In this document: one piece after another, positions 1,933 to 29,936 of the stretch
Layout: each line of letters opens with the position of its first letter
Position numbering within the stretch: the first letter of the stretch is position 1
Source of the DNA: a virus
Lineage: Duplodnaviria; Caudoviricetes
Length of the DNA: 64,000 bases
Strand: one strand, 5' to 3'
IMG/VR virus record: IMGVR_UViG_2912838376_000002
Location: 160,001-224,000 of that record
Program-made: the position numbers and the translations under genes
The notes under the pieces: generated by a model
Databases searched by the model: none
Told to the model about the DNA's origin: nothing
What the model saw: only the letters and a program-made list of their open reading frames with translations

Positions 1933-3030
1933 ATGGATCAGGAGGCTTTTTTCATGTCTAAAAAAAGAATCAACATAAAAGACGTAACAAACGAAGAGTT
2001 TTACAAATTACCTAAGGTGCTTATCTGGAAGAAACAATACCGCGAGAACTTAAGTAGCGGTGCTAAATTACTATACATGCTAGTAAGAGATCGATTCAAT
2101 TTATCTCTATACACAACGCAAATGTCAGTAGCTAATGGAAGTGAAGCTCCTGCTTTTGTAGATGACAAAGGAGACATCTACTGTATTTTAGATAATCAAG
2201 AAATTGAATTCTCATTAAACATATCAAACAAAACTGTTACTAAGTTCATGGACGAGCTTATAGCTGAAGAACTAGTATCGACAGAAGCAGTAGATGGTGG
2301 CGCTAACAGAATCTACTTGAATGAACCAGATTCTAGTGGAGCGTCGTTGGCGCATTTTCTAGGTGAAAAAGAATACTACAAACACGTTAAGATGCGTAAG
2401 AAAAAGAAGAAAGAACCATTAAAAACTCTAGAAGAGTGTATAGCTGCTGCTATGGATAAGTATGGTGTAAAAAAAGAGGGTAGTAAAAATTCCACCCCTG
2501 GGGACGGAGAAATTCCGGTACCTGGGGTAGGAGAAATTCCACCCCCTAGTGAAGGAGAAATTCCACCCCCAGGGGATGAAGATATTCCAGCCCTAGGGGA
2601 GGAAAAAATACACACTAGTAATCTTTATTCTAATTATCCTTACCCTAATGAGATTTATCCCAACGAGAAGGAACCCAACTTAAATAAGTCTTCTAAAGAA
2701 AATAGTGGAGATCCATTAGAAGACGAACAAGAAAACACTATCGTTTCTCGACGAACTAATTATGCCTTATTAGATTCTATTCTTGAACAAGTAGGAATAT
2801 GTCCAGATTTAAAAGCACTTAACGTTGTAAAGAAGACACTTGCAGAAGCTGAAATTGCATCATTCCACAAGGTAGATGTATTAAATGCCATAGGTAGACA
2901 TGCTATGAACGTTAAAAAGTATGAATCTCAAGGCGAAGTAATTGAATACGAACCTGCATTTTTCGCTAATAATCTAGTAGACCGTATTAGAGAAAATGCT
3001 GCTAAACGTCAAAAGAAAGTGATTAGCTAA
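1933..3030 (+). CDS. repA: RepA_N-family replication initiator (probable start ATG 1954)
   Basis: FYKLPKVL, LSSGAKLLYMLVRDRFNLS and DDKGDIYC are RepA_N N-terminal winged-helix signatures. AGGAGG RBS at about 1940. Confidence 0.85.
   Translation: MDQEAFFMSKKRINIKDVTNEEFYKLPKVLIWKKQYRENLSSGAKLLYMLVRDRFNLSLYTTQMSVANGSEAPAFVDDKGDIYCILDNQEIEFSLNISNKTVTKFMDELIAEELVSTEAVDGGANRIYLNEPDSSGASLAHFLGEKEYYKHVKMRKKKKKEPLKTLEECIAAAMDKYGVKKEGSKNSTPGDGEIPVPGVGEIPPPSEGEIPPPGDEDIPALGEEKIHTSNLYSNYPYPNEIYPNEKEPNLNKSSKENSGDPLEDEQENTIVSRRTNYALLDSILEQVGICPDLKALNVVKKTLAEAEIASFHKVDVLNAIGRHAMNVKKYESQGEVIEYEPAFFANNLVDRIRENAAKRQKKVIS
2486..2612 (+). repeat. Five imperfect ~24-bp repeats inside repA (putative origin iterons)
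   Basis: AAATTCC...CC(T/A)GGGG..GGAG units, translated as PGDGEIPV/PGVGEIPP/PSEGEIPP/PGDEDIPA. RepA_N replicons typically carry the origin inside rep. Confidence 0.7.
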
Positions 3031-3201
3031 CTGCACAAGGCTAGCTTGAAATAAAGCAGAAATTAGATTCCCCTAGAATAAATTAGAATGTAATAAAAAA
3101 TCATAAAATGTCGTGGAATTCTACTATATTTTGTTGGTAATGTGTGCTAAAATGAATCTCGAACACATATAATAATAGTTTTTCGAGAGGAGTTTCGATT
3201 T

Positions 3202-4143
3202 ATGACACAAAATTTAATTCTTGGAGTAGATGCAGGTCTAAACGCAGTTAAAATCGTTGGACCTAAAGGAGAAGGATCATTCCCTTCAATTACTATCCTT
3301 GAGCCACCAAAAATGATGAAATTCGGAAATGCATTAGGAATCCAAAACAGATTTGAGTTAACGATTAATGATGAAAGATATATTTTAGGAGACCATGCTA
3401 AGTTTATTGAAACATTCAATCCACTAGGCGTTGATAGCCATAGTAGCACTGGTTCTAAAAATGATGAAACTGCATTTATTCGCGCATTAGGTGGAATTTG
3501 CTTATACTTAGACAAATATGAGAAATTCGATGATGAAGATATTAATGTTTATCTAGCTTATGGAACACCACTAGTAAGCGCTTCTGAATCTGAAGAACTT
3601 GAAGAGATTGAGAAGAGATTTAAAAACAATGGTAACCCAATTGAAGTTGTATTCAATGACGTTCCTTTAAATATTCGCATTAAAGATATTATTGTATTGC
3701 CAGAAGGTGCTGCTGCATTCTTCTCAAATGAATTCACATCTCAAAATGTTTATGTTGTTGATGCTGGTTCACAAACTATCAATCTTGCAGCATTTGTTAA
3801 TGGTATTCTTGTACCAACAGCGGCAGATACTATACATAATGGCGTAGAATTCTACAAAAATATGTATGGTAATAGGACAGCTGAAATGATTGCGAAGAAA
3901 GTTAAAGGTTCAATCGAAGCTTTAAAATGGCCAAAAGGTTCAACACTTCATGTTTGTGGTGGGTATTCAGAACAATTAGCAGATGCATTCAATGAACTAA
4001 AAGACAACAACTACCAAATGGAAATCATGAAACCTGAGCTTGCATTATCAAGAAAGAGTAAGAGTCTAAAACCAATATACGCAAATGCGGCAGGACTATA
4101 CTTTATTGCTAAAGAAGCCTTCGCTCCTGCGGTAAAAGGGTGA
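3202..4143 (+). CDS. parM: ParM/StbA-like actin-family partition ATPase
   Basis: GVDAGLNAVK (phosphate 1), PEGAAA, VVDAGSQTIN (phosphate 2), CGG and ANAAG motifs. Confidence 0.85.
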   Translation: MTQNLILGVDAGLNAVKIVGPKGEGSFPSITILEPPKMMKFGNALGIQNRFELTINDERYILGDHAKFIETFNPLGVDSHSSTGSKNDETAFIRALGGICLYLDKYEKFDDEDINVYLAYGTPLVSASESEELEEIEKRFKNNGNPIEVVFNDVPLNIRIKDIIVLPEGAAAFFSNEFTSQNVYVVDAGSQTINLAAFVNGILVPTAADTIHNGVEFYKNMYGNRTAEMIAKKVKGSIEALKWPKGSTLHVCGGYSEQLADAFNELKDNNYQMEIMKPELALSRKSKSLKPIYANAAGLYFIAKEAFAPAVKG

Positions 4144-5594: not shown

Positions 5595-5903
5595 TTAGCC
5601 AATAAGTGCAAACAGTTCATTGCTTAAAGAAGTTAGTTTATTATATTCACCAATTACAGCATCTTCAATTATTCTTCTAGCTTCCGCATTAACAGGATTA
5701 GCTAAATCTTTGAATCTACCATCTCCCATTTTTTTAGAAGGCATTGCAACCATTAGCTTACCACTTCTGTTTTCTACAATCCTGATATCATTCAGAGCTA
5801 ACATACCATTTACTACAATATTACAAATCGCTTTCATGCCATTACCATCTTTAATTTTCATTTTTACATCTGTAACAATTAATCCATATTCCATTATTAA
5901 CAT
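5595..5903 (-). CDS. spoVG: SpoVG-family nucleic-acid-binding protein
   Basis: VTDVKM...MKAICNI...NDIRIVE...LMVAMPSKK...FKDLANPVN closely matches SpoVG. Confidence 0.9.
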   Translation of the reverse strand: MLIMEYGLIVTDVKMKIKDGNGMKAICNIVVNGMLALNDIRIVENRSGKLMVAMPSKKMGDGRFKDLANPVNAEARRIIEDAVIGEYNKLTSLSNELFALIG

Positions 5904-8658: not shown

Positions 8659-10245
8659 TTAAAATGGTAAATTGTCATCATCTATAGGAGTAGGAGCCCC
8701 TACGTTATAAAACTCAACTGGTTCCGGTTTAGCTAATTTTAAGAAAGAAGGAATGTCTTCTTCATTACAATAGTCTGGAAGCGGGTTTTGGTGTGATTGA
8801 TAACCAGCTTTAAGTTTTCTGATAAACTTTTTATTAAGATAACGATACTTGTCTTGGTCACTAGTAAGCGTAAATAGATTGCGTAGTTCCAATTCAAACT
8901 TTCGCTTATCACGTAATTCTTGTTCTTTGGACTTAGTTTCTTCATATTCTACATACGTCATGATTAATTCGTAAGGAGAGTACACACATTTCTTTAGCAC
9001 TTCAAGATATTCTAAGCCATGTTCATCTAAGAAAGCAGGGAAGTTATTACCCATATTCAGATGCTTATAAAACTTACCGAAGAATCCATGTGGAAACGTC
9101 GTTGCAAACATCACATCATAAAGAGAATTGTTAGTAATGAATTTGTAAATAGGTCGGAATAAGTCAGAGTAAGGGAAACTCATTTTGAATTCTCCGAAGT
9201 ACGATACATTGTCATTAACAAATAGATTGTGACGATACATCTTCTCATTAGCTAAGATGTTGTGTAGTTCATGAGATACGAATTCTTTTCGAGATACATT
9301 TCCGTCAGCAGCTTCTGTATATGCCTCAAGATAAACAAGAACCATGTTGTACAGATAGCTTCTAAGAGCGAAGTCATATTTAAATTTCTCAACAGTAGTT
9401 ACATACTCTATTAGTTCTTCAGGGGTATTACCTTTTTGTTTGAATACCCATGTTAATATATTGAAGGAAGTATACTGAATTGAAAAACCATAGCGTTTCT
9501 TGAAGTAGAATAAACGAACCAATGTACTCTTAGGTGTAATTGGACAAACTACAGACAATCGTTTTTTCTTAATGTCTTCAATAGCAAACTTCGCCGCATA
9601 AACCTCTGTACCTCCAAAATTAAAGAAGTGTCTGATTGAGATATCAAAGTCCATAATTCGTTCAATATCACGACATAGTATTAATTCAATTCTAGTCATT
9701 TTATCGATACCTACTTCAAAGATATATGGAACAGAAATGAAGTCATATGTATAGTTTCTTTCAAACTTCTTAATATTGAAAGTAGGGGAGTAGAATGGAC
9801 TACCACTAGCTATTTTTAATTCTTCTCGTATTTCTTCAATAAATGCTTCAACATCTAATCCTCTGAAAGCAGATACAGGAACTTCCATGAACACATCAAT
9901 ATCTTTAGACTTATATTTGTTTTCAGTCACAACATAAGATACTTCATTATTTAATTCTGGTTGATTCTTCATATATGAATCTGAAAGAAAACCACCAGCA
10001 ATGGAATGTTTCATTTTATGTTCTACTTCAATACGTTCGTTACGTAATAGAAACTGATTTAAACGTTTTTTAAAATAAACTACAAATTCATTTGTTTTAG
10101 CTAAAGTAGATTTTTCAGACCAGTTAATTTCAACCTGCTCTAAATCGTATTTCTCAACTAATGGATCAACAATTGTTTCAACGGTGTTTTCAATTGTGTT
10201 TGGTGTTATTAATCCAAATGGTAATGCTTCAATTACTGTGCTCAT
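8659..10245 (-). CDS. Divergent class II (CCA/poly(A) polymerase-head-like) nucleotidyltransferase with an SSB-like tail
   Basis: IAGGFLSD...KDIDVF (GG..D...DxD) and FDISI (RDFTIN-like) motifs; ends DDDNLPF. Confidence 0.6.
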   Translation of the reverse strand: MSTVIEALPFGLITPNTIENTVETIVDPLVEKYDLEQVEINWSEKSTLAKTNEFVVYFKKRLNQFLLRNERIEVEHKMKHSIAGGFLSDSYMKNQPELNNEVSYVVTENKYKSKDIDVFMEVPVSAFRGLDVEAFIEEIREELKIASGSPFYSPTFNIKKFERNYTYDFISVPYIFEVGIDKMTRIELILCRDIERIMDFDISIRHFFNFGGTEVYAAKFAIEDIKKKRLSVVCPITPKSTLVRLFYFKKRYGFSIQYTSFNILTWVFKQKGNTPEELIEYVTTVEKFKYDFALRSYLYNMVLVYLEAYTEAADGNVSRKEFVSHELHNILANEKMYRHNLFVNDNVSYFGEFKMSFPYSDLFRPIYKFITNNSLYDVMFATTFPHGFFGKFYKHLNMGNNFPAFLDEHGLEYLEVLKKCVYSPYELIMTYVEYEETKSKEQELRDKRKFELELRNLFTLTSDQDKYRYLNKKFIRKLKAGYQSHQNPLPDYCNEEDIPSFLKLAKPEPVEFYNVGAPTPIDDDNLPF

Positions 10246-10720: not shown

Positions 10721-11089
10721 TTATAAATTCAAGATAGCCGTTCGTCCATTCCTACCCATGTCTAGTTTTTCATCACATGGAGTACATAAGCTGTAAGTCA
10801 TGTTCCAAGGCATAAGCGATAAATCCTTACCACAACATTCACAAGATAGACATTGCTCAAATTTAGCCCACCGCTTTTCTTTCTTAATAGCTTCCTTGTT
10901 ACCAATAGGCACTAAACTATTTCTCGGAGCAGAACCTAGTATTGAAAATATGTCGTTCTGATCCCAAGGAATAGTTTTACTTAAGCGACTAGATAATATA
11001 GAAAGTGTCTTTTCTTGTAAGAACCAAGGCTTTCTTTGAGCAGGTTTATTAAAATCCTGATTAGCTGTTAAATCTATGTTTGCTTTCAA
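10721..11089 (-). CDS. Hypothetical protein with CxxC pairs
   Basis: CECC and CTPC; overlaps the upstream stop codon. Confidence 0.6.
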   Translation of the reverse strand: MKANIDLTANQDFNKPAQRKPWFLQEKTLSILSSRLSKTIPWDQNDIFSILGSAPRNSLVPIGNKEAIKKEKRWAKFEQCLSCECCGKDLSLMPWNMTYSLCTPCDEKLDMGRNGRTAILNL

Positions 11090-11814
11090 TGTTTTTTAGA
11101 GAAGAACGTAGATATCTTCTTGAAGAAACCGGGTTTTTGTTTGTTACCCATCATAAAGCGGTTTTCATGTTCTTCCAACAGAGAAAGTTGTTCTTTTAAT
11201 TCATTAATATCTTCAGGGGTTTTAATCGTCATAGAAATATTTTTACCCTTAGAAGCTTGTACTTTGTTAACCATCTTATCTAGCGTAAGGTCACAATATT
11301 CATCTTCCCAATCGCCGATGAAATAGAAGCGGTCAATAACCGTTCTACTTTTTTCATCTTGAAATGTTCCGAAGAGGATAGGGTCCTTATCGCGGCGTTC
11401 CTTCGTTACTTGTTTTTCAACTTTACCTGTATAATCCGTGAACACAACATAGAACTGATCGAACTTATCTTTAATAGTTTCTAGAACAGCAACAACATCA
11501 TCAGGTATTTCTCGTTCGTAACTTTCAAGATCCTGAATCTTAACTGTATCTTTAGAAATGTTCTCGATAAATTCTTCGATGTCATCACGGTAAACAAATG
11601 TATCGATACCAGCCTGCACAATGCTACGTTCTTTTTCAATTGTTTCTAAATGAAAGATTAATTTCTTAATAGCTTTAGTTTGGCCAGTGATTTTGTACTT
11701 ATTCAAAAGGGTAAGACAGTTATCATAGATGTTTACGAGTTCTTGATCATCTATCGTATTCTTTTTACCTTTTATAATTTCAAAGTATTCGCTTGGCGTT
11801 AGTTCTTGATTCAT
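11086..11814 (-). CDS. Hypothetical phage protein
   Basis: 242-aa ORF translationally coupled (ATGA overlap) to the CCA-type gene. Confidence 0.75.
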   Translation of the reverse strand: MNQELTPSEYFEIIKGKKNTIDDQELVNIYDNCLTLLNKYKITGQTKAIKKLIFHLETIEKERSIVQAGIDTFVYRDDIEEFIENISKDTVKIQDLESYEREIPDDVVAVLETIKDKFDQFYVVFTDYTGKVEKQVTKERRDKDPILFGTFQDEKSRTVIDRFYFIGDWEDEYCDLTLDKMVNKVQASKGKNISMTIKTPEDINELKEQLSLLEEHENRFMMGNKQKPGFFKKISTFFSKKH

Positions 11815-13343
11815 ACCATTTTCCCCACATAGTTAGACATTTGCTCACGAGCATTCTTCATAATGACTGTGCGCTGTGCACGTTTATCTTTATGAATCAT
11901 TAAACCTAACTTTTCACCTTTGTATGTTTTCTTTAGTTCTTCAATATCAAGAAGGCAGGCGATATCCTTTGCATTCTCTACATACATATCCATGATACGC
12001 TTATGTTTGATAGCGATAATTAAATCAACAGTCAGTTTCTTAGCTGATTCATAACTACCGGTAATGAACAATAACTTTCTAATCAGTTCATCAAAGTTGA
12101 GTGTACCTTCAGTGTTAAATACGCGTAACATATAAGATACAACTTTTAGAACAGCAGGTAATAGCTCCGGGTTACGGATTCGACCAACTGTATCAGCAAT
12201 ACATACGGTAATGTAATCTTGAGCCCAACCGACACTCGGAAGAAGACCTGGTTTTCTTATGTAATCACTACCACTGTATTCAAATTTACCTTCCATAAAA
12301 TCAACAGCTTTACCATTCTTCATTGCAGTGAATGCGTCGTGGAAAACCATGTGGTTAGCTACATTGAATAAGATAGCCTTCTTATAAGATTTTAAATTAA
12401 AGCGGTCAAGAAATTGTTCTGCAATTGGAACACCTTCTGCTTCATGTGCAATATAAGTAGGAGTACCTTTAACAGGGTGAATACCTTTTGTTACATATTT
12501 ACCAACATCATGAAGTAAGGCAGAGAACATAACTACTAGTTCACTATTAACAGGTAATTCATCTGCAAGATAACGAGCAGAATCAATAACTTGCATAGTA
12601 TGTTCAAATACATTTCCTTCTGGGTGGTACATTAAGTTCTGTTCAAGTTCTGATAAGCAATCAATCTCAGGGAAATGAACATCTAATACATTTGCAGATT
12701 TTAATGCATGGAAGAAGCGGGAAGGGGTACGAGCCATGAATGCTTTCTTCGTTTCTTCTAATACACGTTCAATAGGTAGTGATAACAACTCTGTTTTAAG
12801 TTGATTCATCATCGTCGATGTTTTGTATTCAATAAAGAAACCATATTCTGCAGCAAATCTTGCCGCGCGATACACTCGAAGCGGATCTTCGCAAAAAGCT
12901 TCAGTAGTTGCACGGATTGTTTCAGTTCTTAAGTCAAGTTCACCATAGAACGGATCAATTAATTTATTTGTTTCTAGGTCGATAGCCATTGAATTAATAG
13001 TAATATCTCGGCGGGCTAAATCATCCTCAATAGTGATATCTGGTGATGCATAGATAACAAAACCATTATGACCTTCAGATACTTTTCGTTCTTTTCTAGC
13101 TAATGCTACTTCACAAAGTTCTCCATCAATATCCATACGATAAACAGGGAAGTCTTTACCTTGTAACATAGCAGTAGGGAAGAGACCCTCGAATCCTTCT
13201 TGTGATATACCAGTCACACAATAATCTTTATCTTTTGGTTCTATGTCTAATAGTAAGTCACGAACAGCTCCACCTACTAAATAAACCTTTGCATTGCATG
13301 TTTTTAATGTTTCTACGATTTTAGTTAATTCCACAAAGTTCAC
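11811..13343 (-). CDS. cca: CCA-adding-type tRNA nucleotidyltransferase with HD phosphohydrolase domain
   Basis: VYLVGGAVRD..DKD, EDDLARRDITINSMA, EDPLRVYRAARFAA, HPEGNVFEH and LLHDVGK motifs. Confidence 0.88.
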   Translation of the reverse strand: MNFVELTKIVETLKTCNAKVYLVGGAVRDLLLDIEPKDKDYCVTGISQEGFEGLFPTAMLQGKDFPVYRMDIDGELCEVALARKERKVSEGHNGFVIYASPDITIEDDLARRDITINSMAIDLETNKLIDPFYGELDLRTETIRATTEAFCEDPLRVYRAARFAAEYGFFIEYKTSTMMNQLKTELLSLPIERVLEETKKAFMARTPSRFFHALKSANVLDVHFPEIDCLSELEQNLMYHPEGNVFEHTMQVIDSARYLADELPVNSELVVMFSALLHDVGKYVTKGIHPVKGTPTYIAHEAEGVPIAEQFLDRFNLKSYKKAILFNVANHMVFHDAFTAMKNGKAVDFMEGKFEYSGSDYIRKPGLLPSVGWAQDYITVCIADTVGRIRNPELLPAVLKVVSYMLRVFNTEGTLNFDELIRKLLFITGSYESAKKLTVDLIIAIKHKRIMDMYVENAKDIACLLDIEELKKTYKGEKLGLMIHKDKRAQRTVIMKNAREQMSNYVGKMV

Positions 13344-20063: not shown

Positions 20064-20438
20064 TTAAACCTGCTTCGTTAATGATTCAATATACTTTAAT
20101 ATCTGTGCTTTCAACTCATACTTGAGCTGAACATTCTCGTAGTATTGTACGTTACCCTGTGTTTCAAATGGAGTCTGTCCAGGTGTGACCAGATAAATTG
20201 TCCCTGGATTATTCTTTGATTCTGCAATAGTGACACGAATAGAGCCACTTACTAAATACAGAATGCAATTGCAGACAATACCGTGTGCTCTTTGTAAGTC
20301 GTTTGCAGGATACACCTTAATGTCGTTTAAACCTAATTCTTTGTTGTGTGTTCTTACTGGTACGTTTACTGTGCGGTACCAAACTGATTGTTGGATTTCT
20401 AACATGTTAAAATCTCTCCTTAAAATATATTTAGACAC
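20064..20438 (-). CDS. Paralog of the 21162-21866 core domain, SpoVG/PC4-like ssDNA/RNA-binding candidate (probable start 20405)
   Basis: Shares WYR..N..LG...I...PA...Q..HGI..N..L...GSI and Y.E...L....KAQIL with the 234-aa protein. Confidence 0.55.
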   Translation of the reverse strand: MSKYILRRDFNMLEIQQSVWYRTVNVPVRTHNKELGLNDIKVYPANDLQRAHGIVCNCILYLVSGSIRVTIAESKNNPGTIYLVTPGQTPFETQGNVQYYENVQLKYELKAQILKYIESLTKQV

Positions 20439-21161: not shown

Positions 21162-21866
21162 TTAGATTGGTAACTCATCTTCTTTAATTTGTGGTTCAAC
21201 TTTATCTCCTGTTTCAACTGGTTGCTCTTCTTGAGCAGGCTGTACAGGTTGTTGTTGCTCCATATTTTGAGGTGCAGGTGGCGTATAAGCAGGAGCTTGT
21301 TGACCAAACTGCGGGAACTGCATTGGTTGCTGTTGCATAGGCATTTGCTGTTGCGGTTGCATACCAAATTGTTGTTGAGGTTGTTGCATTCCGAATTGTT
21401 GCTGTGGCATTTGTTGTTGCATAGGAACTTGTCCTGTCAACATCGCTTCAGCAAAACGAAGAATTTGAGCTTTAACTTGTGGAGTTAAGTTAATGTGCTC
21501 CCAATAGTTCTTCTGTCCTGATTGTGCATCTACTCCATTTTCAGTTGAGATAGTCTGTACGAATGGTGCTTGTGTACGAGGACTCATACGAACTTGGAAT
21601 GAAATACTACCAATAACAGAACGCAATAAACCATTGAACAAGATACCATGTGGCACTTGGTTAGCAGATGCAGGTTTTAATGAGATATTCTCAATACCTA
21701 ACTGCATATTGCTTGGTGCATTCGTTACACCATACAGATAACTACTATTTTGACGATACCAGAACGGGTCAGACTGTTTCTGTTGCTGTTGACCAAATTG
21801 TGGTTGTTGTCCATATTGCGGTTGTGCAAATTGTTGAGTTGTCATAATAAAATCTCTCCATTTCAT
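21162..21866 (-). CDS. Putative single-stranded nucleic-acid-binding protein with Q-rich linkers and acidic LPI tail (probable start 21845)
   Basis: Beta-rich core plus terminal helix, long Q/P/M linker and C-terminus EDELPI resembling the SSB tail DDLPF. Confidence 0.55.
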   Translation of the reverse strand: MKWRDFIMTTQQFAQPQYGQQPQFGQQQQKQSDPFWYRQNSSYLYGVTNAPSNMQLGIENISLKPASANQVPHGILFNGLLRSVIGSISFQVRMSPRTQAPFVQTISTENGVDAQSGQKNYWEHINLTPQVKAQILRFAEAMLTGQVPMQQQMPQQQFGMQQPQQQFGMQPQQQMPMQQQPMQFPQFGQQAPAYTPPAPQNMEQQQPVQPAQEEQPVETGDKVEPQIKEDELPI

Positions 21867-21884
21867 AATTAAAATTTTTAAATC

Positions 21885-22250
21885 AAAAAAGGTAGGGGAG
21901 TTAGCCCCTTAAGTAGTGCACTTAAACTTTTACCTACTCTATATTTAATTAGAGGAATTATTACCTCAAGAAAGGTAAAGGAGTTATCCTTTTGGGTACA
22001 GAACCAAACGCCCAGTTCTATATCCGAACTATTCTTTACATCACTTTCGGATAGGGCGTTAGCCCCTATCCATTACGAGGGCACGTCCAGTTAAAGATTT
22101 CCGCTCTACATTTCATAGGCGGAAGTATAGGCGTTAGCCTGAACGTTAGTGAGGGTGCGTTAGCACCTATACGGTTGACCAATGCGTTAGCAGTGGGCAA
22201 CAGCCCCGGCCGAAGGCCCGGGTAAATCCCGTCCTTATATCTACGTTCTT
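21885..22250 (-). ncRNA. Structured intergenic element with seven GTTA/UAAC-loop hairpins
   Basis: GC-rich non-coding segment between the helicase and SSB-like genes. Loops at 21900, 21983, 22058, 22133, 22145, 22159 and 22186 sit on stems of different sequence. Confidence 0.6.
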
Positions 22251-22303
22251 TATATAAACGCACATATAAAAACAGGAGCAGGGAAGAACCCCACTCCTAT
22301 AAA

Positions 22304-23701
22304 TCATCTTACAATTACTAAGTTTTCTACTGCTCGTGTAACTACAGTGTATAACCATCTGTTAGCATTCTTATATCCATCAACTCCACGATTAAATACT
22401 CCACTTTCATTAATTACATATACAGTCTTCCATTGTGAACCTTGAGATGAATGTCCAGTAATAACATATCCAAATTGAACTTCTACACCTATTGGAATCT
22501 CACGTTTTCCTTGAACTCTAAGCTCCTTGTTCTTCTTACGAATCTCAGAAGCTGTCTTTCTTTCAAACAATACATCCTCGTTTACTTCAATGTAACGATG
22601 CCCATCGAATGCTTCAGGAGTAAACTTGAACTTGATATTTCCATTGTTTAGTTTCTTAATTTCAGATACTGTGCCACGCATACCGTTAGTTACTTGAATT
22701 TCACCATTGTTACCACCATCAATATTCTCTTTGATTACAACAGTTTCACCATCCATAAGAACTGGTTCATTGAAGCCAAGGTGTGAACGAATAGCTTGGT
22801 TTAGACTTTGACGAGTCTTATTCATACCAGCAATCACAACACCACCATTAGCAACTACCTTTGCATATTGGGCAACAGATACTCTACTGCGGTTAACAAC
22901 AAATACTTTCCCACCAATGTTCTGATCTCTGTTAGGGAAGATGTAGGGTGTTCCATTTTCTGTAGCCTGACGAATAGCCATTGATAAAGCAACAATTGGA
23001 TTATCTGCAGCTTGGCGTAATACTTCAGTAAGGATTGCATCTGGATTAACAAAGAAGTACTCTTCATCTTTAACAGGAGGTAACTGACCAGGATCTCCAA
23101 CGATTAATACTTTGCATCCAGCTTTCTTAGCCATAGGAAGAATTTCCTCTGCCATACGTCTACCTGTCATAGAGAACTCATCACCAATGATTAGTCTTAC
23201 ACCGTATAAGTTTTCTGCAGAAGGAACAAAGCGAGTACGTCCATCTTTCATTAACTCAGGTACAAAGAATAGGCGATGTAGAGTAGAACAAGAATATCCA
23301 GGTGTCTTTTCTTTTAATACAAGTGAAGCAGTACCAGTTGGTGCACACATACGAACTTGGTCCGCTCTAATTCCAAGCTCCTCTAATATAAAATCAACAA
23401 CAGTAGATTTACCTACACCAGCGAATCCTGCTAATTCAAACTTTCCATAACCATGAGTAGTAGAGTACCATCTCTTAATCTTGCTAACTACCGATTGTTG
23501 ACTAGGTGTTAATACAATATCTCTTTTCTTCTTGCGTTTATTTGGTTGAACCGGTTCAGTAGTTTGATCTACATTGAATACAGGTTTAGGGCTATCTATA
23601 ATATCTTCTGCTACAGTTACAGCATCAACGGGATTAGTAACTGGCTTTTCCTTCTTTGTGTTTAAGTGTTTAATTAATTGGTTTGTTGTCATAATAGTCA
23701 T
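22304..23701 (-). CDS. SF1B (Dda/RecD-like) helicase
   Basis: GFAGVGKS, APTG, STLHR, DEFSM, GDPGQLPPV, LRQ, ITGHSSQGSQW and LYTVVTRA motifs. Confidence 0.9.
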   Translation of the reverse strand: MTIMTTNQLIKHLNTKKEKPVTNPVDAVTVAEDIIDSPKPVFNVDQTTEPVQPNKRKKKRDIVLTPSQQSVVSKIKRWYSTTHGYGKFELAGFAGVGKSTVVDFILEELGIRADQVRMCAPTGTASLVLKEKTPGYSCSTLHRLFFVPELMKDGRTRFVPSAENLYGVRLIIGDEFSMTGRRMAEEILPMAKKAGCKVLIVGDPGQLPPVKDEEYFFVNPDAILTEVLRQAADNPIVALSMAIRQATENGTPYIFPNRDQNIGGKVFVVNRSRVSVAQYAKVVANGGVVIAGMNKTRQSLNQAIRSHLGFNEPVLMDGETVVIKENIDGGNNGEIQVTNGMRGTVSEIKKLNNGNIKFKFTPEAFDGHRYIEVNEDVLFERKTASEIRKKNKELRVQGKREIPIGVEVQFGYVITGHSSQGSQWKTVYVINESGVFNRGVDGYKNANRWLYTVVTRAVENLVIVR

Positions 23702-23798
23702 ATCGAAATCTCTCCTTATAATTGGCTTTTTAGTTTTAAGTCTTTAATTTTTATCTGTCTATATAAAAGAAAAAGAGCAGGGAAGAATCCCCGCTCTG

Positions 23799-24695
23799 TT
23801 AAATCGGTAGAACGATGTCACCTAAGTCTAGAGTTGCAGCTTCTGGTTGTGTAGGTGGTTCTGGGTATTTAATTTCTGGAATAAGAATTGACTCATCAAA
23901 CATTGATGGTGCTGATACAATAGATTGAACTGGTCGAGCTTGTTTCACTTCTTCAACTACCTCTAAAATCTCCGCGTATAATCCAGTAAAAGTAGAGTTA
24001 GGAACATTCTTCTTTAAATGAGTTAATACACGAACAGTGTGACCCATATACTTTTCTAATTCAGCACGAATTGTTTTGTTCTCTCTATTGTCAGCAAGAG
24101 AACCGATAAATTGACCATCTTTATAAACAAGATAAGATGTTGTCATTGTTTCTTCATTTACCTCAACTTTTACATCCATAACACCTTCATCAACAGCTGC
24201 TTCTTTCATGTTCATGATTCCACACTCTTGTGCAATGTGAGACGCCTTTAAATCACAAGAAGATGCGAATGGACATCCTTTACATGGCTTATCAATACGA
24301 ACATATAAGTCATACTGTTTGTTACCAAGTACATATTCTTGTGGTGCAGGATCTTCTACGATATCTTCCACTACTGGTTGTGGAGGAATGAATGGTGCTG
24401 GCGTTTCATTTGTATGTTGTACAGCTTCCGCCGCTTGTTTCATTAAAGTTGGCATCATAGCATCTATTTGTTGTTGTACTAATGTATTAACATCTACAGA
24501 CTGTTCTTGTTGAACAGGTGTAGTATTTGATTGTTGCATCCAAGTTAAGCCTTGTTGTAAAGCTTGTGTTTGTTGATTAAGAGCCTGTGCTTGTTGGCTT
24601 AATGTGTTCATATACATTGCAAAGATTTCGTTGTTATTCATATTCATTTCTCTCCCTTTATCTGATAAAATAAAAGGGTAGCGGATTAACTCCAC
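23799..24695 (-). CDS. Q-rich protein with Cys cluster and possible HIRAN-like domain (probable start about 24647)
   Basis: N-terminal Q-rich helix, CKGCPFASSC...C cluster, VYKDGQFIGSL (HIRAN-like V....IG), tail GDIVLPI. Confidence 0.5.
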   Translation of the reverse strand: MELIRYPFILSDKGREMNMNNNEIFAMYMNTLSQQAQALNQQTQALQQGLTWMQQSNTTPVQQEQSVDVNTLVQQQIDAMMPTLMKQAAEAVQHTNETPAPFIPPQPVVEDIVEDPAPQEYVLGNKQYDLYVRIDKPCKGCPFASSCDLKASHIAQECGIMNMKEAAVDEGVMDVKVEVNEETMTTSYLVYKDGQFIGSLADNRENKTIRAELEKYMGHTVRVLTHLKKNVPNSTFTGLYAEILEVVEEVKQARPVQSIVSAPSMFDESILIPEIKYPEPPTQPEAATLDLGDIVLPI

Positions 24696-24718
24696 TACCC
24701 AAATGATTGTTTTAATTA

Positions 24719-27700
24719 TTAGAAGCGAACGATTGCAGTCGTTCCTTCTTCGCCAAATGCGATTTCTGTAACAGGGATTTCGTAGATACCAGCCATGCTG
24801 AAGTTTGTTGGAGCAAACCCCATGTATGCTGCATCTTCACGAGTAACTGTCATAGCGTCAGTAACTTGTGCATCTTTGTTTAAGAAGTACATTACAAGGC
24901 GAACAGAGTCTTGCTGTTGTTCTGGTTTAATCGCAACTCGCACGTTACGGTTAACAGAAACAGTTTTATTCGCTACTTTTGCAACCGGGTTCATAACACG
25001 AACTTTCACTTGGTTAGAAACTGCAGTTGGAGCTGCAACTTTCTCAACTAAGCTAGATTGTAAAAGAGTGAATGTAATATCTTGTGGAACGAAATAAGTC
25101 TCAGAAACTCGGCCAGAGATTAAAGAGTTCATTTCTTCCGCAAATACTTCGAATGGTAAAGCAATGAATCCGTTAGATGCTACGAAACGATATTCGCGGC
25201 CATCTTTACGGTAAGCAGCTTTACCATTTGTTTTTGCTTCATTAACTAATAGGTATAGAGCACCAACTAATTGACGAACATCTAAACCTAATTCTTTTGC
25301 AGTTGCATACATTTCTTTACGAAGTTCTGCTTTGTATAGGTCACGAGCCATTTTGTATTGAGATAATGTAGCATCGTAGTTAGCACGGATCTTAGCAGTC
25401 TTCTTCGCTTTAGTTAGAGATTGCATGTTTTTCTTACGGAATACACCAGCTTCTTTAAGCTCAGCTTCAGCTTGCATCATGAAGTCTTTCTCAGCAGCCG
25501 CGCGAACATTCTCTTTTTGAGTGTAAGCATTGTATAGGTTAGCAACATAGTACTTCACTGCATCAATTGATTGTGGAGCAACTTCCATGTGTGTAGCAAT
25601 ACGAGTACGAATCTCATTCTTAGCAGTATTGCTGTGACCTGTTTGGAACTTCTCACATAATGCTACGATAGCTTCTTCTGCATAGTTGAATACAAACTCA
25701 TAAGCGCTATCATTGTTAACTACACCAAACTCATCTTTCTGAGAAGCTAACCATTGTGGCTTCTTAACTTCGAAACCAGTGATTACAGCTTGACCAGACA
25801 TTTTATCTTGACGTACAATTGGGCTGAAGATGTGAGCGTAAATACCTTTTTCTTCAGCAAGTAATGCAAACTTAGCCTCATTTGTTAATTCTAATTCAGC
25901 TTCCTCAAAGAAACGACCTTCGAAGTTAGCGAATAGTTTGTTGATAAGAGGCATAGATAGGTAAGCACCACCGTGTTTAGGACGGTCAATTTCCCAACGA
26001 CCAGCAGTACATAAAGCAAGTAAGTCAGCTTCAACTTCCGCACGTTGAGCAGCATTTAATACTGAACGAGAAAGAAGGTCAGTTAAGATCATTGCACGGT
26101 TAGCAATTACACCGATTAAGCTTGCTTCAATTGTATCAACAGTGATTTGTTGAGATAGACCAGCAACTACTTCTAAGAAATCGTGACGGCGAGCAGTACC
26201 ATTCTCACCTTTTAATTCTTCTGGATTGAAGATTACATTGTTACCTTGAACGATAAATCCATTTACTTCTTTAGCTTCTGGTTTAGTTTCTTTAGCTTTA
26301 GCAGCTGCAGTTACATAAGTAGGACAACCTGTACCGAATTCAACAGCAACACCATTCTCGTATTTAACATAAGCATCAACGAATGGAAGTACAGCTTGAT
26401 TACCGTATAATTCAACTTCTTTACGGATACGAGCATTAACCATTAACTCATCAAAGATAATGATTGAAGTATCACCATCATGGTCAGCACCAGCTTGTTG
26501 TGCAACAACCCAAGAGAAAGCATCGAAGAACGTAATACCTTGCCATAAACCTTGTTCAACGAACTCAGCATACTCTGGAGATTGAACAGCAGTTACAACT
26601 GGAATCTCATGAGTAACTGTAACAGGGAAACGAACAGATAATGCTTTACCAGTTTCTAAGAAGAACTTGTCATCTTTCTTAGATGGAGCAACTACTTCAT
26701 AAGCACCTAATACAGCATCTTCTTTAGTTGCAGTGTAACGACCATCTTTCGCAGCATTGTAGATAGCGAATACATCTGTGAACATATAACGAGTACGAGC
26801 TTGAGTAGTGAATAGTTTAGAATCTAATAATTTGTTAAGCTTCTTAACTCCTAAACCAACAATCTCATCTTTAATGTATTGCTCATCAAGAATGTCACCA
26901 AACTCTTGAGCAAGACGTACATAATCAACCGCCGCAAATTCTGTTTCTGCTTCTTCTTCAGCAGCATTAAGCATTGTTAAGATATCAGAAGTCATTTTCT
27001 CTTCGATAGAATTCTTCACGAAATCAACGCTGTTTGTAACACCTTGTTTTAATTCTTCAACAGATAATCCCATTTGTTGTGTAGCTTGAGATGCAACCCA
27101 GATACCGTCGTTACCATCTTTACGTTGTCCAACTACGAATAATTGGAATCCGTTTTCTTGGATGTCAGCTAAGATATCTTCTGATTTCACCATACCATCA
27201 GTTAAGATGATATCAGCATTGAATAATTCACAGATTGGGTTGAACTCGAATGAAGCACCTTTAACTGCGTTAGAGATACGTAATTGGAATGCATCAAAGC
27301 TATTGATTACTCCTGCAGAACGTAAACCTTCAGTAACGCGTCGGTTGTGCCATCCTTGTCCATCTGTAAGGTTACGGAATAGAAGATCTTTAACAGCATC
27401 TTTGTTATCCCAGTTATTGAACTTCTCAACACCTACAAATGCATTGTCTTTATTTAATACGTTTAACATGAAGTCTTGATCCATTGCGATTTGAGCAGTG
27501 AAATCATCAACTAAAGCGATTGTGATTTTCTCACCATCGTTATTTGTTACTACGATGTAAGCTGGTTTAATTTCACCAATTACATTACGAGTTCCAGCAG
27601 GGAAGAACTCAACTGTGTGGTTGTGGCTGAATGTGCTTAGTAAACCTTTATCAGCTTTAAGACCATTAGAACCTGCTAACATGAAACGTTTGTAAGACTT

Positions 27701-28906
27701 AGCAACATCCATTACATTGTATCCAGTTGCTTCACCATTTAATTTGTGCTTTTTACCATAAGCGCGCTCATCTTGACCAGTTCCTAAGAAGTAAGTAATT
27801 ACATCTTCTAGAGTTTTGAAACCAACAGCACCATTAGAACGAGCTTGAGACATTGATTTAGCATATGTTTTGTAAGAGAATGTTTCTTCTTCAGATACAA
27901 CAGAACCAATTTCTAATTGACCATCTTCACGGTGTAATACAGATACCTCAGAGAATACCGCTTTTAATACCGCGCCGTTTACTTCTTCACCAAATGGTAG
28001 AGAAGCAGATCCGTCAAATGTACACATTTCATCAAGAACAACTGCTTTTTGTGGTTCTTCAATACGTAGAGTCATACCATCTTTGCTGTACTCTTTAACA
28101 ACATTGATTGTTTGAGTCTTTTTACCTTTAGCCATTGCGAAACGGTAAGCCGCTAAGCTACCAGACATCTTTTGGAATAGAGAGTTAACATTAGTTAGGT
28201 TGCTTACATTAGTATCCTTAGCAATGTAGAAGCGAACACCATCACGTAGAACTACTTTCTTGTTGTCGTCTTTTCCTACTTGAACCATTACATTCTCCAT
28301 TAATTCTTCTACATCGAAGTCTACTAATTTACCTAGTACTTCACCACTAGATACTACATAGATATCACCCATGTTTAATGCTGCCATTAATACAGTCTCA
28401 CGAGTCTTTTTGCCATGTACTTTAGCCTTAGCAGTAAGACGGCCTTTTAAGTTTAACTTCTCTAATGCTTTGAACTCTGCTGATTCCATGAACTTAGGGA
28501 ATAGGCCAGGCATAACTACCATTAAGTAATCGATTACTTGCTTACCAGTAGCAGAAGAGAACTGGATAGATACTTCAGTACCATCTTCTTTAGTTACTAC
28601 GAATTTGTTACGACGAGCATCTACAGTTAATGCAGTTGCATCAGTACCAATGAATTGTGAGAATAATGGAGCCTTTACACCCATACCGAATAATGCTTTA
28701 GCGATTTGTCCTGAAGCGTTTTGTACTACCTGTAAGTTACCTGCTGTGAATACTACTGTTTTGTTTGTCATTTTAATCTCTCCTTTAGTTGTGTTGTTTA
28801 CAGTTGTGTTAGTGTTGTTAGTCATAGTTGTGTTCTCTCCTTTGATTGTGTTAGTTCCTTGAGTTGTTGTAGCTGTAGTAGTGTTAGTCATGATAATTCC
28901 TTTCAT
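24719..28906 (-). CDS. Single-chain two-barrel polymerase of the eukaryotic RdRP (QDE-1/RDR)/YonO family
   Basis: Ordered motifs SMSQAR, KSYKRFMLAGS, LTDGQG, AFQLRISNAVKG, VRFP, AGADHDGD (DxDGD at 26471-26485), LIGVIAN and IDRPKHG. Confidence 0.88.
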   Translation of the reverse strand: MKGIIMTNTTTATTTQGTNTIKGENTTMTNNTNTTVNNTTKGEIKMTNKTVVFTAGNLQVVQNASGQIAKALFGMGVKAPLFSQFIGTDATALTVDARRNKFVVTKEDGTEVSIQFSSATGKQVIDYLMVVMPGLFPKFMESAEFKALEKLNLKGRLTAKAKVHGKKTRETVLMAALNMGDIYVVSSGEVLGKLVDFDVEELMENVMVQVGKDDNKKVVLRDGVRFYIAKDTNVSNLTNVNSLFQKMSGSLAAYRFAMAKGKKTQTINVVKEYSKDGMTLRIEEPQKAVVLDEMCTFDGSASLPFGEEVNGAVLKAVFSEVSVLHREDGQLEIGSVVSEEETFSYKTYAKSMSQARSNGAVGFKTLEDVITYFLGTGQDERAYGKKHKLNGEATGYNVMDVAKSYKRFMLAGSNGLKADKGLLSTFSHNHTVEFFPAGTRNVIGEIKPAYIVVTNNDGEKITIALVDDFTAQIAMDQDFMLNVLNKDNAFVGVEKFNNWDNKDAVKDLLFRNLTDGQGWHNRRVTEGLRSAGVINSFDAFQLRISNAVKGASFEFNPICELFNADIILTDGMVKSEDILADIQENGFQLFVVGQRKDGNDGIWVASQATQQMGLSVEELKQGVTNSVDFVKNSIEEKMTSDILTMLNAAEEEAETEFAAVDYVRLAQEFGDILDEQYIKDEIVGLGVKKLNKLLDSKLFTTQARTRYMFTDVFAIYNAAKDGRYTATKEDAVLGAYEVVAPSKKDDKFFLETGKALSVRFPVTVTHEIPVVTAVQSPEYAEFVEQGLWQGITFFDAFSWVVAQQAGADHDGDTSIIIFDELMVNARIRKEVELYGNQAVLPFVDAYVKYENGVAVEFGTGCPTYVTAAAKAKETKPEAKEVNGFIVQGNNVIFNPEELKGENGTARRHDFLEVVAGLSQQITVDTIEASLIGVIANRAMILTDLLSRSVLNAAQRAEVEADLLALCTAGRWEIDRPKHGGAYLSMPLINKLFANFEGRFFEEAELELTNEAKFALLAEEKGIYAHIFSPIVRQDKMSGQAVITGFEVKKPQWLASQKDEFGVVNNDSAYEFVFNYAEEAIVALCEKFQTGHSNTAKNEIRTRIATHMEVAPQSIDAVKYYVANLYNAYTQKENVRAAAEKDFMMQAEAELKEAGVFRKKNMQSLTKAKKTAKIRANYDATLSQYKMARDLYKAELRKEMYATAKELGLDVRQLVGALYLLVNEAKTNGKAAYRKDGREYRFVASNGFIALPFEVFAEEMNSLISGRVSETYFVPQDITFTLLQSSLVEKVAAPTAVSNQVKVRVMNPVAKVANKTVSVNRNVRVAIKPEQQQDSVRLVMYFLNKDAQVTDAMTVTREDAAYMGFAPTNFSMAGIYEIPVTEIAFGEEGTTAIVRF

Positions 28907-29052
28907 ATGCTCTCATTTAATTGGTCAGGAGCTAGACCTATATTTGTGGGTCGGTAGTAGGGGGTGGGCATCGAAAGTCCACCAAGTACAACCCATATAT
29001 ACCACCTTGCGCCTCAAAAAATTTAAAAAAATCCAGCCTATATAGGGCAACA

Positions 29053-29298
29053 AGTCAGGAAGAAAGAAGGCGGTTATCCGTAGGGCACAGCCCAACAGCG
29101 GACGACTACCTTCTTTTTATTTGTGCCTACAGTCAGGAATGAGCGAGCCGGTGATGAAGCCAATAGTATTTGATTGAGAAAATGTGACAAATTGGTTAGG
29201 TTATGGCTGAAGTCAGGAAAGGAGGGTGAGGACATGGAAGGACTTATGTATGAACGATTTGAACAAGACCTACTTGATCATTGGGTGAAAAGTCAGGA
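29053..29298 (+). repeat. Phased AGTCAGGA repeats
   Basis: Copies at 29053, 29131, 29211 and 29291 (78/80/80 bp apart); further copy at 29911 and variants at 28923 and 29498. Confidence 0.75.
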
Positions 29299-29896: not shown

Positions 29897-29936
29897 CAAT
29901 AAAGAGAACCAGTCAGGAGAAAAGGAGGGCGGTAAA

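Follow-up and report, generated by a model that had tools for sequence, protein, structure and literature searches.

The window, that is the whole stretch of 64,000 nucleotides that was analysed and to which the coordinates below refer, belongs to an element which shares 95.7% identity with the pBtic235-type plasmids of Bacillus thuringiensis (235 kb) and is a close relative of pBtic235. The latter resides in Bacillus thuringiensis israelensis, a strain used as a biopesticide, and is an inducible, genetically tractable jumbo phage-plasmid. A strand switch is located near position 29000. Terminase, portal, capsid and sheath genes open the plus-strand structural arm, which extends from 29174 to the end of the window and continues to about genome position 37000. 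The ORF of a 1395-aa polymerase (24719-28906, minus strand) diverges from this arm and is followed on the same strand by a neighbour ORF with a longest frame of 298 aa (23799-24695), the ORF of a 465-aa helicase (22304-23701), a hairpin-rich intergenic gap of 437 nt (21867-22303), and the ORF of a 234-aa protein (21162-21866). Moreover, a 124-aa tail-less paralogue of the 234-aa protein core is encoded nearby (20064-20438, minus strand). The first-pass annotation had described five consecutive co-oriented elements at this site, and all of them were recovered in place, on the minus strand at the strand switch. Elsewhere the genome encodes a primase (phrog_16345) adjoining a DnaB-like helicase, a DNA polymerase, a canonical SSB and a plasmid-type Rep/Par pair.

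A single-chain two-barrel RNA polymerase of the RdRP/YonO clade

The evidence strongly supports the assignment of the 1395-aa protein to the single-chain two-barrel RNA polymerases of the RdRP/YonO clade, which is a known type. The accessible text of PMC2919709 lists eight invariant residues for two-barrel RNA polymerases (an Asp; an Arg and a Lys; an Arg-x-Pro; a DxDxD), which in QDE-1 correspond to D709, R738, K743, R962, P964 and D1007/1009/1011. All eight are present in the polymerase family in a QDE-1-like order and spacing, and in our alignment D515, R543, K549, R759, P761, D808, D810 and D812 were invariant in 46/46 sequences. The DHDGD motif comprises residues 808-812 (26471-26485) and was likewise invariant across the alignment. 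The motif set of cellular RdRPs with an intact DxDGD, which had been proposed from the sequence, was thus found with its complete set of catalytic residues. The protein had also been described as considerably longer than YonO, which is correct since YonO comprises only 839 aa. Its N-terminus is of low complexity and T/N-rich.

Foldseek with the AF2 model of the polymerase (pLDDT 89.4, pTM 0.82) matched RDR2 (7w82, E 3e-16) and QDE-1 (5fsw, E 5e-16), and 16 RDR2/QDE-1 entries among the matches listed had a probability of 1.00 with E-values from 3e-16 to 2e-11. The crAss-like phi14:2 polymerase was matched at E 2e-5 and phage 'RdRP' models at 3e-19. The 1395-aa protein itself matched no Pfam family, including PF05183 (RdRP), and no PHROG. 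Among its distant relatives 20/34 matched PF05183 at E<=0.01 and 11/34 exceeded the gathering score of this family, to which the 1395-aa protein would belong by transitivity through these relatives. A profile of the polymerase family matched the 843-aa yonO frame of NC_001884 (E 4e-11; DxDGD stretch E 0.004) as well as gp99 of phage 0305phi8-36 (positions 119-1182, best E 1.4e-13). A tblastn search of the phage collection with the polymerase gave zero matches even at E<=10, which may reflect limited sensitivity and is no proof of absence, since the profile search found gp99 in the same collection. Nothing significant was obtained from the PDB, neither with the single sequence (best E 0.86) nor with a profile (best E 0.07; QDE-1 at E 0.29). 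Besides, a scan of genome contigs returned only two distant loci, which are duplicates of two viral loci.

Genes downstream of the polymerase

The true start of the 298-aa frame is probably located at 24641, giving a protein of 280 aa (23799-24641). The first 18 codons of the longer frame overlap an intrinsic-terminator-like hairpin with a T-run directly 3' of the polymerase stop codon (24676-24700, minus strand). The 280-aa protein starts with a Q-rich helical N-terminus and a conserved Cys cluster, followed by a HIRAN-like or OB-like beta-barrel (residues ~105-230; model domain pLDDT 83-91) and a disordered tail. This tail terminates in a conserved TLDLG(D/E)xxLPI, the tip of which is present in 9/10 rows of the family. 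The barrel aligned with 3k2y_A (lp_0118), which we take to be a HIRAN protein, at a VIA Z of 7.2 (rmsd 3.6, 98/103 residues aligned) and with the HIRAN domains of HLTF (4xzg) and Rad5 (6l8o) at a Z of 4.4 each, all scores lying in the range flagged by the tool as possibly a mere common arrangement. Foldseek placed the same HIRAN entries on top with probabilities of 0.75-0.94 but E-values of 0.02-0.15, and 0/10 family members matched Pfam HIRAN (PF08797) at E<=10. What remains of the proposed HIRAN-like protein is therefore a weak structural likeness in VIA and Foldseek that is not accompanied by a Pfam match.

For the 465-aa protein, the earlier call of an SF1 helicase agreed with matches to Pfam AAA_30 (PF13604, E 9.6e-21), UvrD_C_2 (PF13538, E 1.5e-10) and phrog_325 'Dda-like helicase' (E 8.3e-78, residues 49-464), and a Dda/RecD-like SF1B helicase is strongly supported. 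According to the accessible part of PMC7824862, jumbo phages commonly have helicases of the Dda type as helpers in recombination.

The 234-aa protein comprises a core of ~110 aa, a Q/P/M-rich linker and an acidic tip [DE][DE][DE]LP[IVLM]. Its homologues begin at its residue 8, and the acidic LP[IVLM] tip was present in 15/15 tailed homologues. Acidic-LP[FI] ends were found in only 4/259 ORFs, namely the canonical SSB, a 528-aa protein and the 280-aa and 234-aa proteins. The conserved LPI tip shared by the latter two suggests a common docking partner. Searches of Pfam and PHROG with the 234-aa core revealed no OB/SSB domain, and hhalign with the phage's own SSB gave a probability of 34% over 24 columns only. 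The designation as an SSB-like protein accordingly holds for the architecture of core, linker and acidic tip but not for a recognisable OB fold. In the ESM Atlas the core matched SpoVG-like rows with a TM of 0.62-0.70 by row and 0.31 by query, which is under the naming bar. The hhalign probability with SpoVG was 3.8%, and the Pfam SpoVG model (PF04026) matched only the true SpoVG gene at 5637-5876. A weak similarity of the 528-aa protein to PAZ (E 0.046, 14 bits versus a cut-off of 28.8) was taken as a chance match.

Hairpins, leader and promoters

The gap at 21867-22303 folded with an RNA z-score of -6.6, and 0/100 shuffles folded as well. Its mean column identity across 5 loci was 84% (nt), which makes it more conserved than the 280-aa protein with its 38-43% aa identity within the lineage, and double-sided changes were observed in 16/114 predicted pairs. 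The structured RNA that had been noticed beside the helicase gene is thus a conserved hairpin cluster; it contains one UUCG loop and five GCUAACGC (UAAC-loop) hairpins. One terminator-like hairpin with a T-run lies directly 3' of the helicase stop codon (22272-22300, minus strand), and another one closes the gap just before the ribosome-binding site of the 234-aa gene (21894-21909, minus strand). No sigma-70-like promoter was found inside the gap, and an Rfam search assigned it to no family (best mir-1277, 26 bits versus a gathering score of 81). The RNA-library depth over the gap was ordinary, which is no argument against a small RNA there. As a terminator-like hairpin is located behind every gene, the block is not one tight operon. 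UAAC hairpins with T-runs act as terminators at 9 further minus-strand sites genome-wide, and therefore the UAAC loops are not special to the gap. Most simply, the cluster may represent a structured, terminator-bounded leader or spacer that would have been assembled from the UAAC-loop hairpins which also serve as terminators along the whole minus arm.

The 5' leader of the polymerase gene was almost invariant between the window and the related locus L002. A structured RNA leader was rejected since the RNA fold z of only -1.5 was not significant, and DNA-level signals are therefore preferred. A sigma-A-like promoter match, TTGTCA-16-TACTAT, which was recognised by its consensus alone, precedes the start codon of the polymerase gene by ~250 nt (29163-29190, minus strand). 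On the plus arm a search for shared 9-mers in 20 intergenic gaps revealed no motif in more than 2 gaps and no repeated late-promoter motif.

RNA libraries of two studies contain a very abundant RNA from the 3' end of the polymerase gene (24.7-25.14 kb), as judged from RNA contigs, which give no strand, ends or levels. This region is strongly folded and showed no synonymous-site constraint in relatives. An antisense ORF of 100 aa (24795-25097) is not regarded as a gene, since it is closed in L002, L088 and L089, where the longest frames have 72-74 codons, and since its sequence is junk-like.

Discussion

In our judgement the locus is best read as a late-gene DNA-dependent RNA polymerase beside separate fork and recombination genes, and we consider this reading rather probable. 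The polymerase would be the phage-plasmid's own enzyme, distantly related to SPbeta YonO and 0305phi8-36 gp99 and of considerable length. In the accessible text of PMC5467207 YonO is described as a strictly DNA-dependent RNA polymerase by which the late genes of SPbeta are transcribed in a single operon. By analogy, we infer that the host RNA polymerase expresses the polymerase gene from the sigma-A-like promoter heading the minus arm, and that after induction the polymerase would transcribe the long divergent plus-strand structural arm in a DNA-dependent manner. The polymerase profile did not match the structural relatives WH1, KLEB27-3 and Moorella MTATph1, a search that may lack sensitivity; late transcription in this phage group thus appears not always to depend on such a polymerase. 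The downstream genes would not encode polymerase subunits but a lineage-specific DNA-maintenance set, which comprises the HIRAN-like protein, the Dda-like helicase, a nucleic-acid-binding protein whose linker and tip are of the SSB style, and its tail-less paralogue. The LPI tips of the 280-aa and 234-aa proteins reproduce the one on the canonical SSB of the phage. Both proteins could dock on the partners of SSB at forks or recombination intermediates.

The first-pass annotation had instead regarded the five elements as one self-contained machine for RNA synthesis. The polymerase would then produce RNA on single-stranded or unwound templates, with the helicase unwinding them and the SSB-like and HIRAN-like proteins holding single strands or 3' ends, and the hairpin cluster could serve as promoter or template. 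The virion RNA polymerase of N4 uses SSB-stabilised DNA hairpins in a comparable way. The order of polymerase, 280-aa protein, helicase, gap and 234-aa protein was kept in 4/4 related loci, and this adjacency is compatible with cooperation, with the loci all belonging to the same lineage (68-98% identical polymerase, whole arm syntenic), for which the diversity covered is small (5 loci in about 3 independent groups). The identical type of tip on both accessory proteins, a hairpin cluster that is better conserved than the 280-aa protein, and QDE-1-type folds as the best structural match also speak for a joint function. However, the proposal fails the test that had been set for it in the first-pass annotation, as the association is absent outside the lineage. 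Around 17 distant viral homologues, none of the 150 ORFs of at least 112 aa located up to 4.5 kb away contained an SF1-helicase domain, and the neighbours of 0305phi8-36 gp99 and SPbeta yonO differ, with no helicase beside either. Moreover, relatives of the 234-aa core are present in phages WH1 and KLEB27-3, in which the profiles of the polymerase, the helicase and the 280-aa protein all failed to find a match. Scans of viral contigs with the families of the 234-aa and 280-aa proteins returned only two contigs, both already known. The terminator-like hairpins between the genes and the recurrence of the UAAC hairpins along the minus strand argue against a single unit as well. Since DNA-handling genes do not accompany such polymerases elsewhere, and the genome encodes its own replication set at other sites, the proposed machine is not supported and we consider it unlikely. 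A related scheme has even less to recommend it, in which both LPI-tipped proteins and the helicase would cooperate with the polymerase in making RNA on ssDNA or hairpin DNA, the tips recruiting them to one hub, and the abundant RNA would be a regulatory RNA or product that controls the switch between lysogeny and lysis.

It is very improbable that the polymerase is a primer-maker or origin-activating transcriptase which, joined by the helicase and the SSB-like protein, acts on the hairpin cluster as a nearby origin. Genes for a helicase and for a protein of SSB architecture do adjoin the polymerase gene, the hairpin-rich region folds strongly, and the host RNA polymerase primes some phage and plasmid origins. 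Nevertheless, primase, DnaB-like helicase, Rep/Par, DNA polymerase and SSB are all encoded elsewhere, and neither iterons nor an AT-rich unwinding element were identified at the cluster. The closest solved folds are RNA-dependent enzymes, of which QDE-1 copies ssDNA too. A true RNA-dependent RNA polymerase that copies phage RNA, be it the abundant 3'-end RNA or the hairpin cluster, would fit the best fold matches, RDR2 and QDE-1, and the very abundance of the RNA in libraries of two studies, but is hardly credible given that YonO, the sole characterised phage member, is reported to strongly prefer DNA templates (PMC5467207, accessible text) and that the abundant RNA lacks synonymous-site constraint in relatives.

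As a late-gene DNA-dependent RNA polymerase, the enzyme with its ~550 extra residues and its high-confidence model would serve alongside YonO as a second experimental model in which to study how this class recognises promoters. To our knowledge, YonO is the only polymerase of its type that has been studied biochemically. Single-chain two-barrel polymerases of the YonO type are thought to be similar to the ancestor of all cellular RNA polymerases. The two proteins that copy the SSB tip offer an opportunity to test whether a phage exploits the interaction hub of the host SSB, and for lysogeny control the abundant RNA within the polymerase gene provides a concrete starting point. The terms 'RNA polymerase' and 'YonO' are absent from the accessible part of the pBtic235 transcriptome paper (PMC9700832), and therefore the polymerase may have been overlooked in that study.

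Among known systems, YonO of SPbeta belongs to the same clade by profile, has the same catalytic residue set and also originates from a Bacillus phage. Downstream of yonO there is a stem-loop, and behind it yonN, a gene for a small nucleic-acid-binding protein, which is similar to the arrangement of the polymerase gene described here. Both enzymes differ in size (1395 versus 839 aa). Furthermore, yonO precedes its own late operon in the same orientation, whereas the polymerase gene in our study diverges from the structural arm, and no helicase, HIRAN-like or SSB-tip gene adjoins yonO. The SPbeta yonN-yonK gap showed no sequence similarity to the non-coding regions of the window and contained none of the motifs. 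In the Bacillus thuringiensis jumbo phage 0305phi8-36, which has a related capsid (39.5% identity) and the same host group, gp99 is of similar size (1218 aa), is annotated as 'similar to Pfam05183' and is listed as YonO-like in the accessible part of PMC7824862. It differs in being undetectable by tblastn and in its neighbourhood, which consists of small proteins without assignment and a YpsA/SLOG protein and contains no helicase. The best solved-structure matches, QDE-1 and RDR2 (E about 1e-16, TM 0.43-0.47 by target, ~1000 aligned columns), have the same eight invariant residues but only 10-13% identity, and in contrast to these eukaryotic RdRPs the polymerase is found in a phage setting without Dicer or Argonaute context. 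The HIRAN domains of HLTF and Rad5 align weakly with the barrel of the 280-aa protein, whose family lacks a Pfam HIRAN match. Bacterial and phage SSBs combine an OB fold with a disordered linker and a DDDIPF-type tip; although no OB/SSB domain could be recognised in the core of the 234-aa protein, its Q/P-rich linker and acidic LP[IVLM] tip resemble those of the SSB encoded by the phage itself, whose last residues are DDALPF.

Composition of the block and its genomic setting

The five elements described by the first-pass annotation were all found: four ORFs and a 437-nt gap lie co-oriented on the minus strand, directly past the strand switch near 29000. The block's 7.7 kb share 95.7% DNA identity with eight 235.4-kb Bacillus thuringiensis plasmids, e.g. 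NC_018509, whose size and type are those of pBtic235 as treated in PMC9700832. The window spans positions 160001-224000 of a 244,829-bp virus record, and the source element is a myovirus-like phage-plasmid. It carries Rep (DnaD-like) and Par genes (1933-4143), and its plus arm encodes terminase, portal, capsid and sheath. Capsid relatives at 70% are found in the Bacillus phages WH1, Edson and KLEB27-3, more distant ones in Moorella MTATph1 (47%) and 0305phi8-36 (39.5%). Outside the window, a PHROG scan of 145 ORFs of at least 112 aa (six ORFs across locus borders were left out) revealed a full replication and recombination set including a DnaB-like helicase adjoining a primase, a large DNA polymerase, a canonical SSB, a UvsX-like recombinase, a Sak-like annealase, ligases and RNR. 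The minus strand at 11086-13343 carries a tRNA nucleotidyltransferase-like gene (phrog_2244) and, after it, a transposase-like gene (phrog_10081). Together with the RtcB and tRNA-His guanylyltransferase genes elsewhere in the genome, the former points to a large tRNA-repair set.

Fold and active site of the polymerase

The 1395-aa protein (24719-28906) itself matched no Pfam or PHROG family. A word-indexed search returned 27 homologues; 26 are full-length, share 44-99% identity and come mainly from Bacillus, Cytobacillus, Priestia and Gottfriedia contigs of 160-247 kb, and the 27th is distant (24% identity). An exhaustive search with residues 196-1395 yielded 54 representatives, 34 of which were scanned against Pfam: PF05183 (RdRP) was matched at E<=0.01 in 20 of the 34, and its gathering score was exceeded in 11. 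Invariant columns of a 46-sequence alignment include D515, R543, K549, R759, P761 and D808-x-D810-G-D812 (full-length numbering). These eight residues are the set that Ruprich-Robert and Thuriaux (PMC2919709) describe as invariant throughout the two-barrel RNAPs (QDE-1 D709, R738, K743, R962, P964 and D1007/1009/1011), with the same order and a spacing near-identical to QDE-1. The ordered RdRP motif set with an intact DxDGD noted at first reading is thus present.

An AlphaFold2 model of residues 196-1395 reached pLDDT 89.4 and pTM 0.82. Among the PDB matches listed by Foldseek, the top 16 are maize and Arabidopsis RDR2 and QDE-1 (E 3e-16 to 2e-11, probability 1.00), followed by the crAss-like phi14:2 virion polymerase (2e-5) and P74 gp62 (3e-5). 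In a BFVD structure search, phage proteins under the name RNA-dependent RNA polymerase (3e-19 and 5e-15) and a 1218-aa entry ranked at the top. The N-terminus (28750-28906) is of low complexity and rich in T and N. It is also length-variable, since 99%-identical homologues have 1472 aa vs 1395, and the polymerase of L002, another locus of the lineage, contains an extra block of ~77 residues past the first few codons.

Conservation of the gene neighbourhood

The block had been proposed to be a self-contained machine for RNA synthesis, with the neighbourhood of homologues as the criterion. Our survey does not support this proposal, as the order is kept within the lineage only and not beside distant homologues. 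In all four other lineage loci (L001, 98%; L002, 76%; L088, 72%; L089, 68%) the genes follow as polymerase, 280-aa protein, helicase, gap, 234-aa protein, 77-aa protein, 96-aa protein and 124-aa paralogue; this retained order is whole-arm synteny. Among 150 ORFs neighbouring 17 distant viral polymerase homologues (an 18th locus and four far-upstream ORFs were left out) none contained a helicase domain, and the neighbours of gp99 of 0305phi8-36 and of yonO of SPbeta are unrelated to the block's genes. Moreover, tail-less relatives of the 234-aa core occur in WH1 and KLEB27-3 (E 7e-18 and 5e-25), and neither phage matched the polymerase, helicase or 280-aa profiles. The WH1 arm corresponding to the minus arm lacks a polymerase gene at its head. 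Some 9 kb deeper into that arm, in the region 144024-150522 of the phage, three large genes without known function (822, 593 and 692 aa, the last with a PcfJ domain) lie upstream of gp145, the WH1 homologue of the 234-aa core.

Helicase and tip-bearing proteins

The 465-aa protein (22304-23701) is a Dda/RecD-like SF1B helicase, in keeping with the annotated SF1 helicase; its best phage relatives, including those of PBS1 and AR9, are ~32-34% identical. The preceding gene most likely starts at 24641, encoding 280 aa instead of the 298-aa frame, because the Atlas record starts at that codon and the polymerase's terminator hairpin overlaps the codons before it. Its family (seven database homologues and the L002 and L088 members) shares a Cys cluster and ends in TLDLG(D/E)xxLPI. 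The AF2 model is confident only at residues ~145-230 (block means 83-91), where it shows a beta-beta-beta-alpha-beta-beta order. VIA-align ranked 3k2y_A first (Z 7.2, rmsd 3.6, 98 residues aligned), with the Rad5 and HLTF HIRAN domains both at Z 4.4. Foldseek again gave 3k2y and HLTF HIRAN as best rows, but at E 0.02-0.15, and Pfam HIRAN matched none of the ten members. The proposed HIRAN-like fold is therefore reasonable but unproven, weakly supported by structure and not by sequence.

In the 234-aa protein (21162-21866) a core of ~110 residues is followed by a Q/P/M-rich linker and by a tip [DE][DE][DE]LP[IVLM], which is kept in 15/15 tailed homologues. An acidic-LP[FI] C-terminal tip occurs in only 4 of the genome's 259 ORFs, namely the canonical SSB (…DDALPF), a 528-aa protein at 8659-10245 on the minus strand (…DDDNLPF), the 234-aa protein (…EDELPI) and the 280-aa protein (…DIVLPI). 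The label SSB-like thus fits the architecture of linker and acidic tip, but the core has no SSB or SpoVG domain recognisable by sequence; a SpoVG-like structural lead in the Atlas is sub-threshold. A tail-less paralogue of the core is located at 20064-20438. The same minus arm also carries a genuine SpoVG-family gene at 5637-5876 (PF04026, E 5.8e-23). The 528-aa protein has no family assignment, its PAZ match (E 0.046, 14 bits vs a cut-off of 28.8) being below threshold.

Hairpin-rich gap and an abundant RNA

The gap (21867-22303) folds far better than shuffles (z -6.6), in line with the structured RNA annotated there. It holds one UUCG hairpin and five GCUAACGC hairpins. Identity over five loci is 84%, and some predicted pairs have changed on both sides; these changes stem from only about three independent lineages. 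Neither an Rfam family nor a sigma-70-like promoter was matched within it. Terminator-like hairpins bound the gap, one directly before it and another at its end, just ahead of the next ribosome-binding site. Genome-wide, the GGGGC-UAAC-GCCCC hairpin has 12 minus-strand and 2 plus-strand sites, none of them on the plus strand of the structural arm. As expected for terminators, T-rich sequence (5 or more T within 9 bases) follows at 9/12 minus-strand sites. The minus arm's intrinsic terminators have a common design of G/C stem, UAAC tetraloop and T-run (e.g. 1391, 10298, 19131, 20453 and 21898).

RNA-library contigs (runs X1, X3 and X4 of study P1, run X10 of study P5) reach a summed depth of 20,000-205,000 over ~24.7-25.14 kb, where the polymerase gene has its final ~140 codons. 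Depth is 280-1,226 over the remainder of this gene and 0-290 over the genes downstream (35-290 in X1, X3 and X4; 0-5.5 in X10). Coverage of the ~24.7-25.14 kb stretch is split into hundreds of contigs 60-136 nt long. Either strand of the stretch folds strongly (z -4.6 and -6.6), and in a 300-nt scan no other part of the gene was as structured; the stretch displayed no synonymous-site constraint, conserved antisense ORF or Rfam match. The abundant RNA may represent a putative 3'-derived or antisense regulatory RNA.

Proposed mechanism and relation to known polymerases

Host RNAP would probably read the polymerase gene from a sigma-A-like consensus match at 29190-29163. By analogy with YonO, the polymerase would then most likely transcribe the long plus-strand structural arm. 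Gaps are few in this arm and no promoter motif recurs in them, which suits one or few start sites and an enzyme of high processivity. Between the arms, the divergent control region contains four AGTCAGGA boxes with 78-80-nt spacing (29053-29298, plus strand). The motif occurs seven times in the window, each time on the plus strand (the other three copies at 29911, 52567 and 59510), vs 2.1 copies expected on both strands; seven copies are reached in 1/100 shuffles. Between the window and L002, the flanking leader (28907-29100) hardly varies. The boxes are a candidate array of operators or late promoters. The HIRAN-like protein, the helicase and the protein with SSB architecture are best read as putative fork and recombination helpers using SSB-type tips.

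The enzyme class is already known, also in a jumbo B. thuringiensis phage. Our alignment profile matches the SPbeta yonO frame (E 4e-11) and 0305phi8-36 gp99 over profile positions 119-1182 (best E 1.4e-13); the gp99 gene record already carries 'similar to Pfam05183', and PMC7824862 lists gp99 as YonO-like. With 1395 aa vs 839 aa for yonO, the greater length pointed out initially is evident, and the protein is a longer, divergent member of the YonO-type class.
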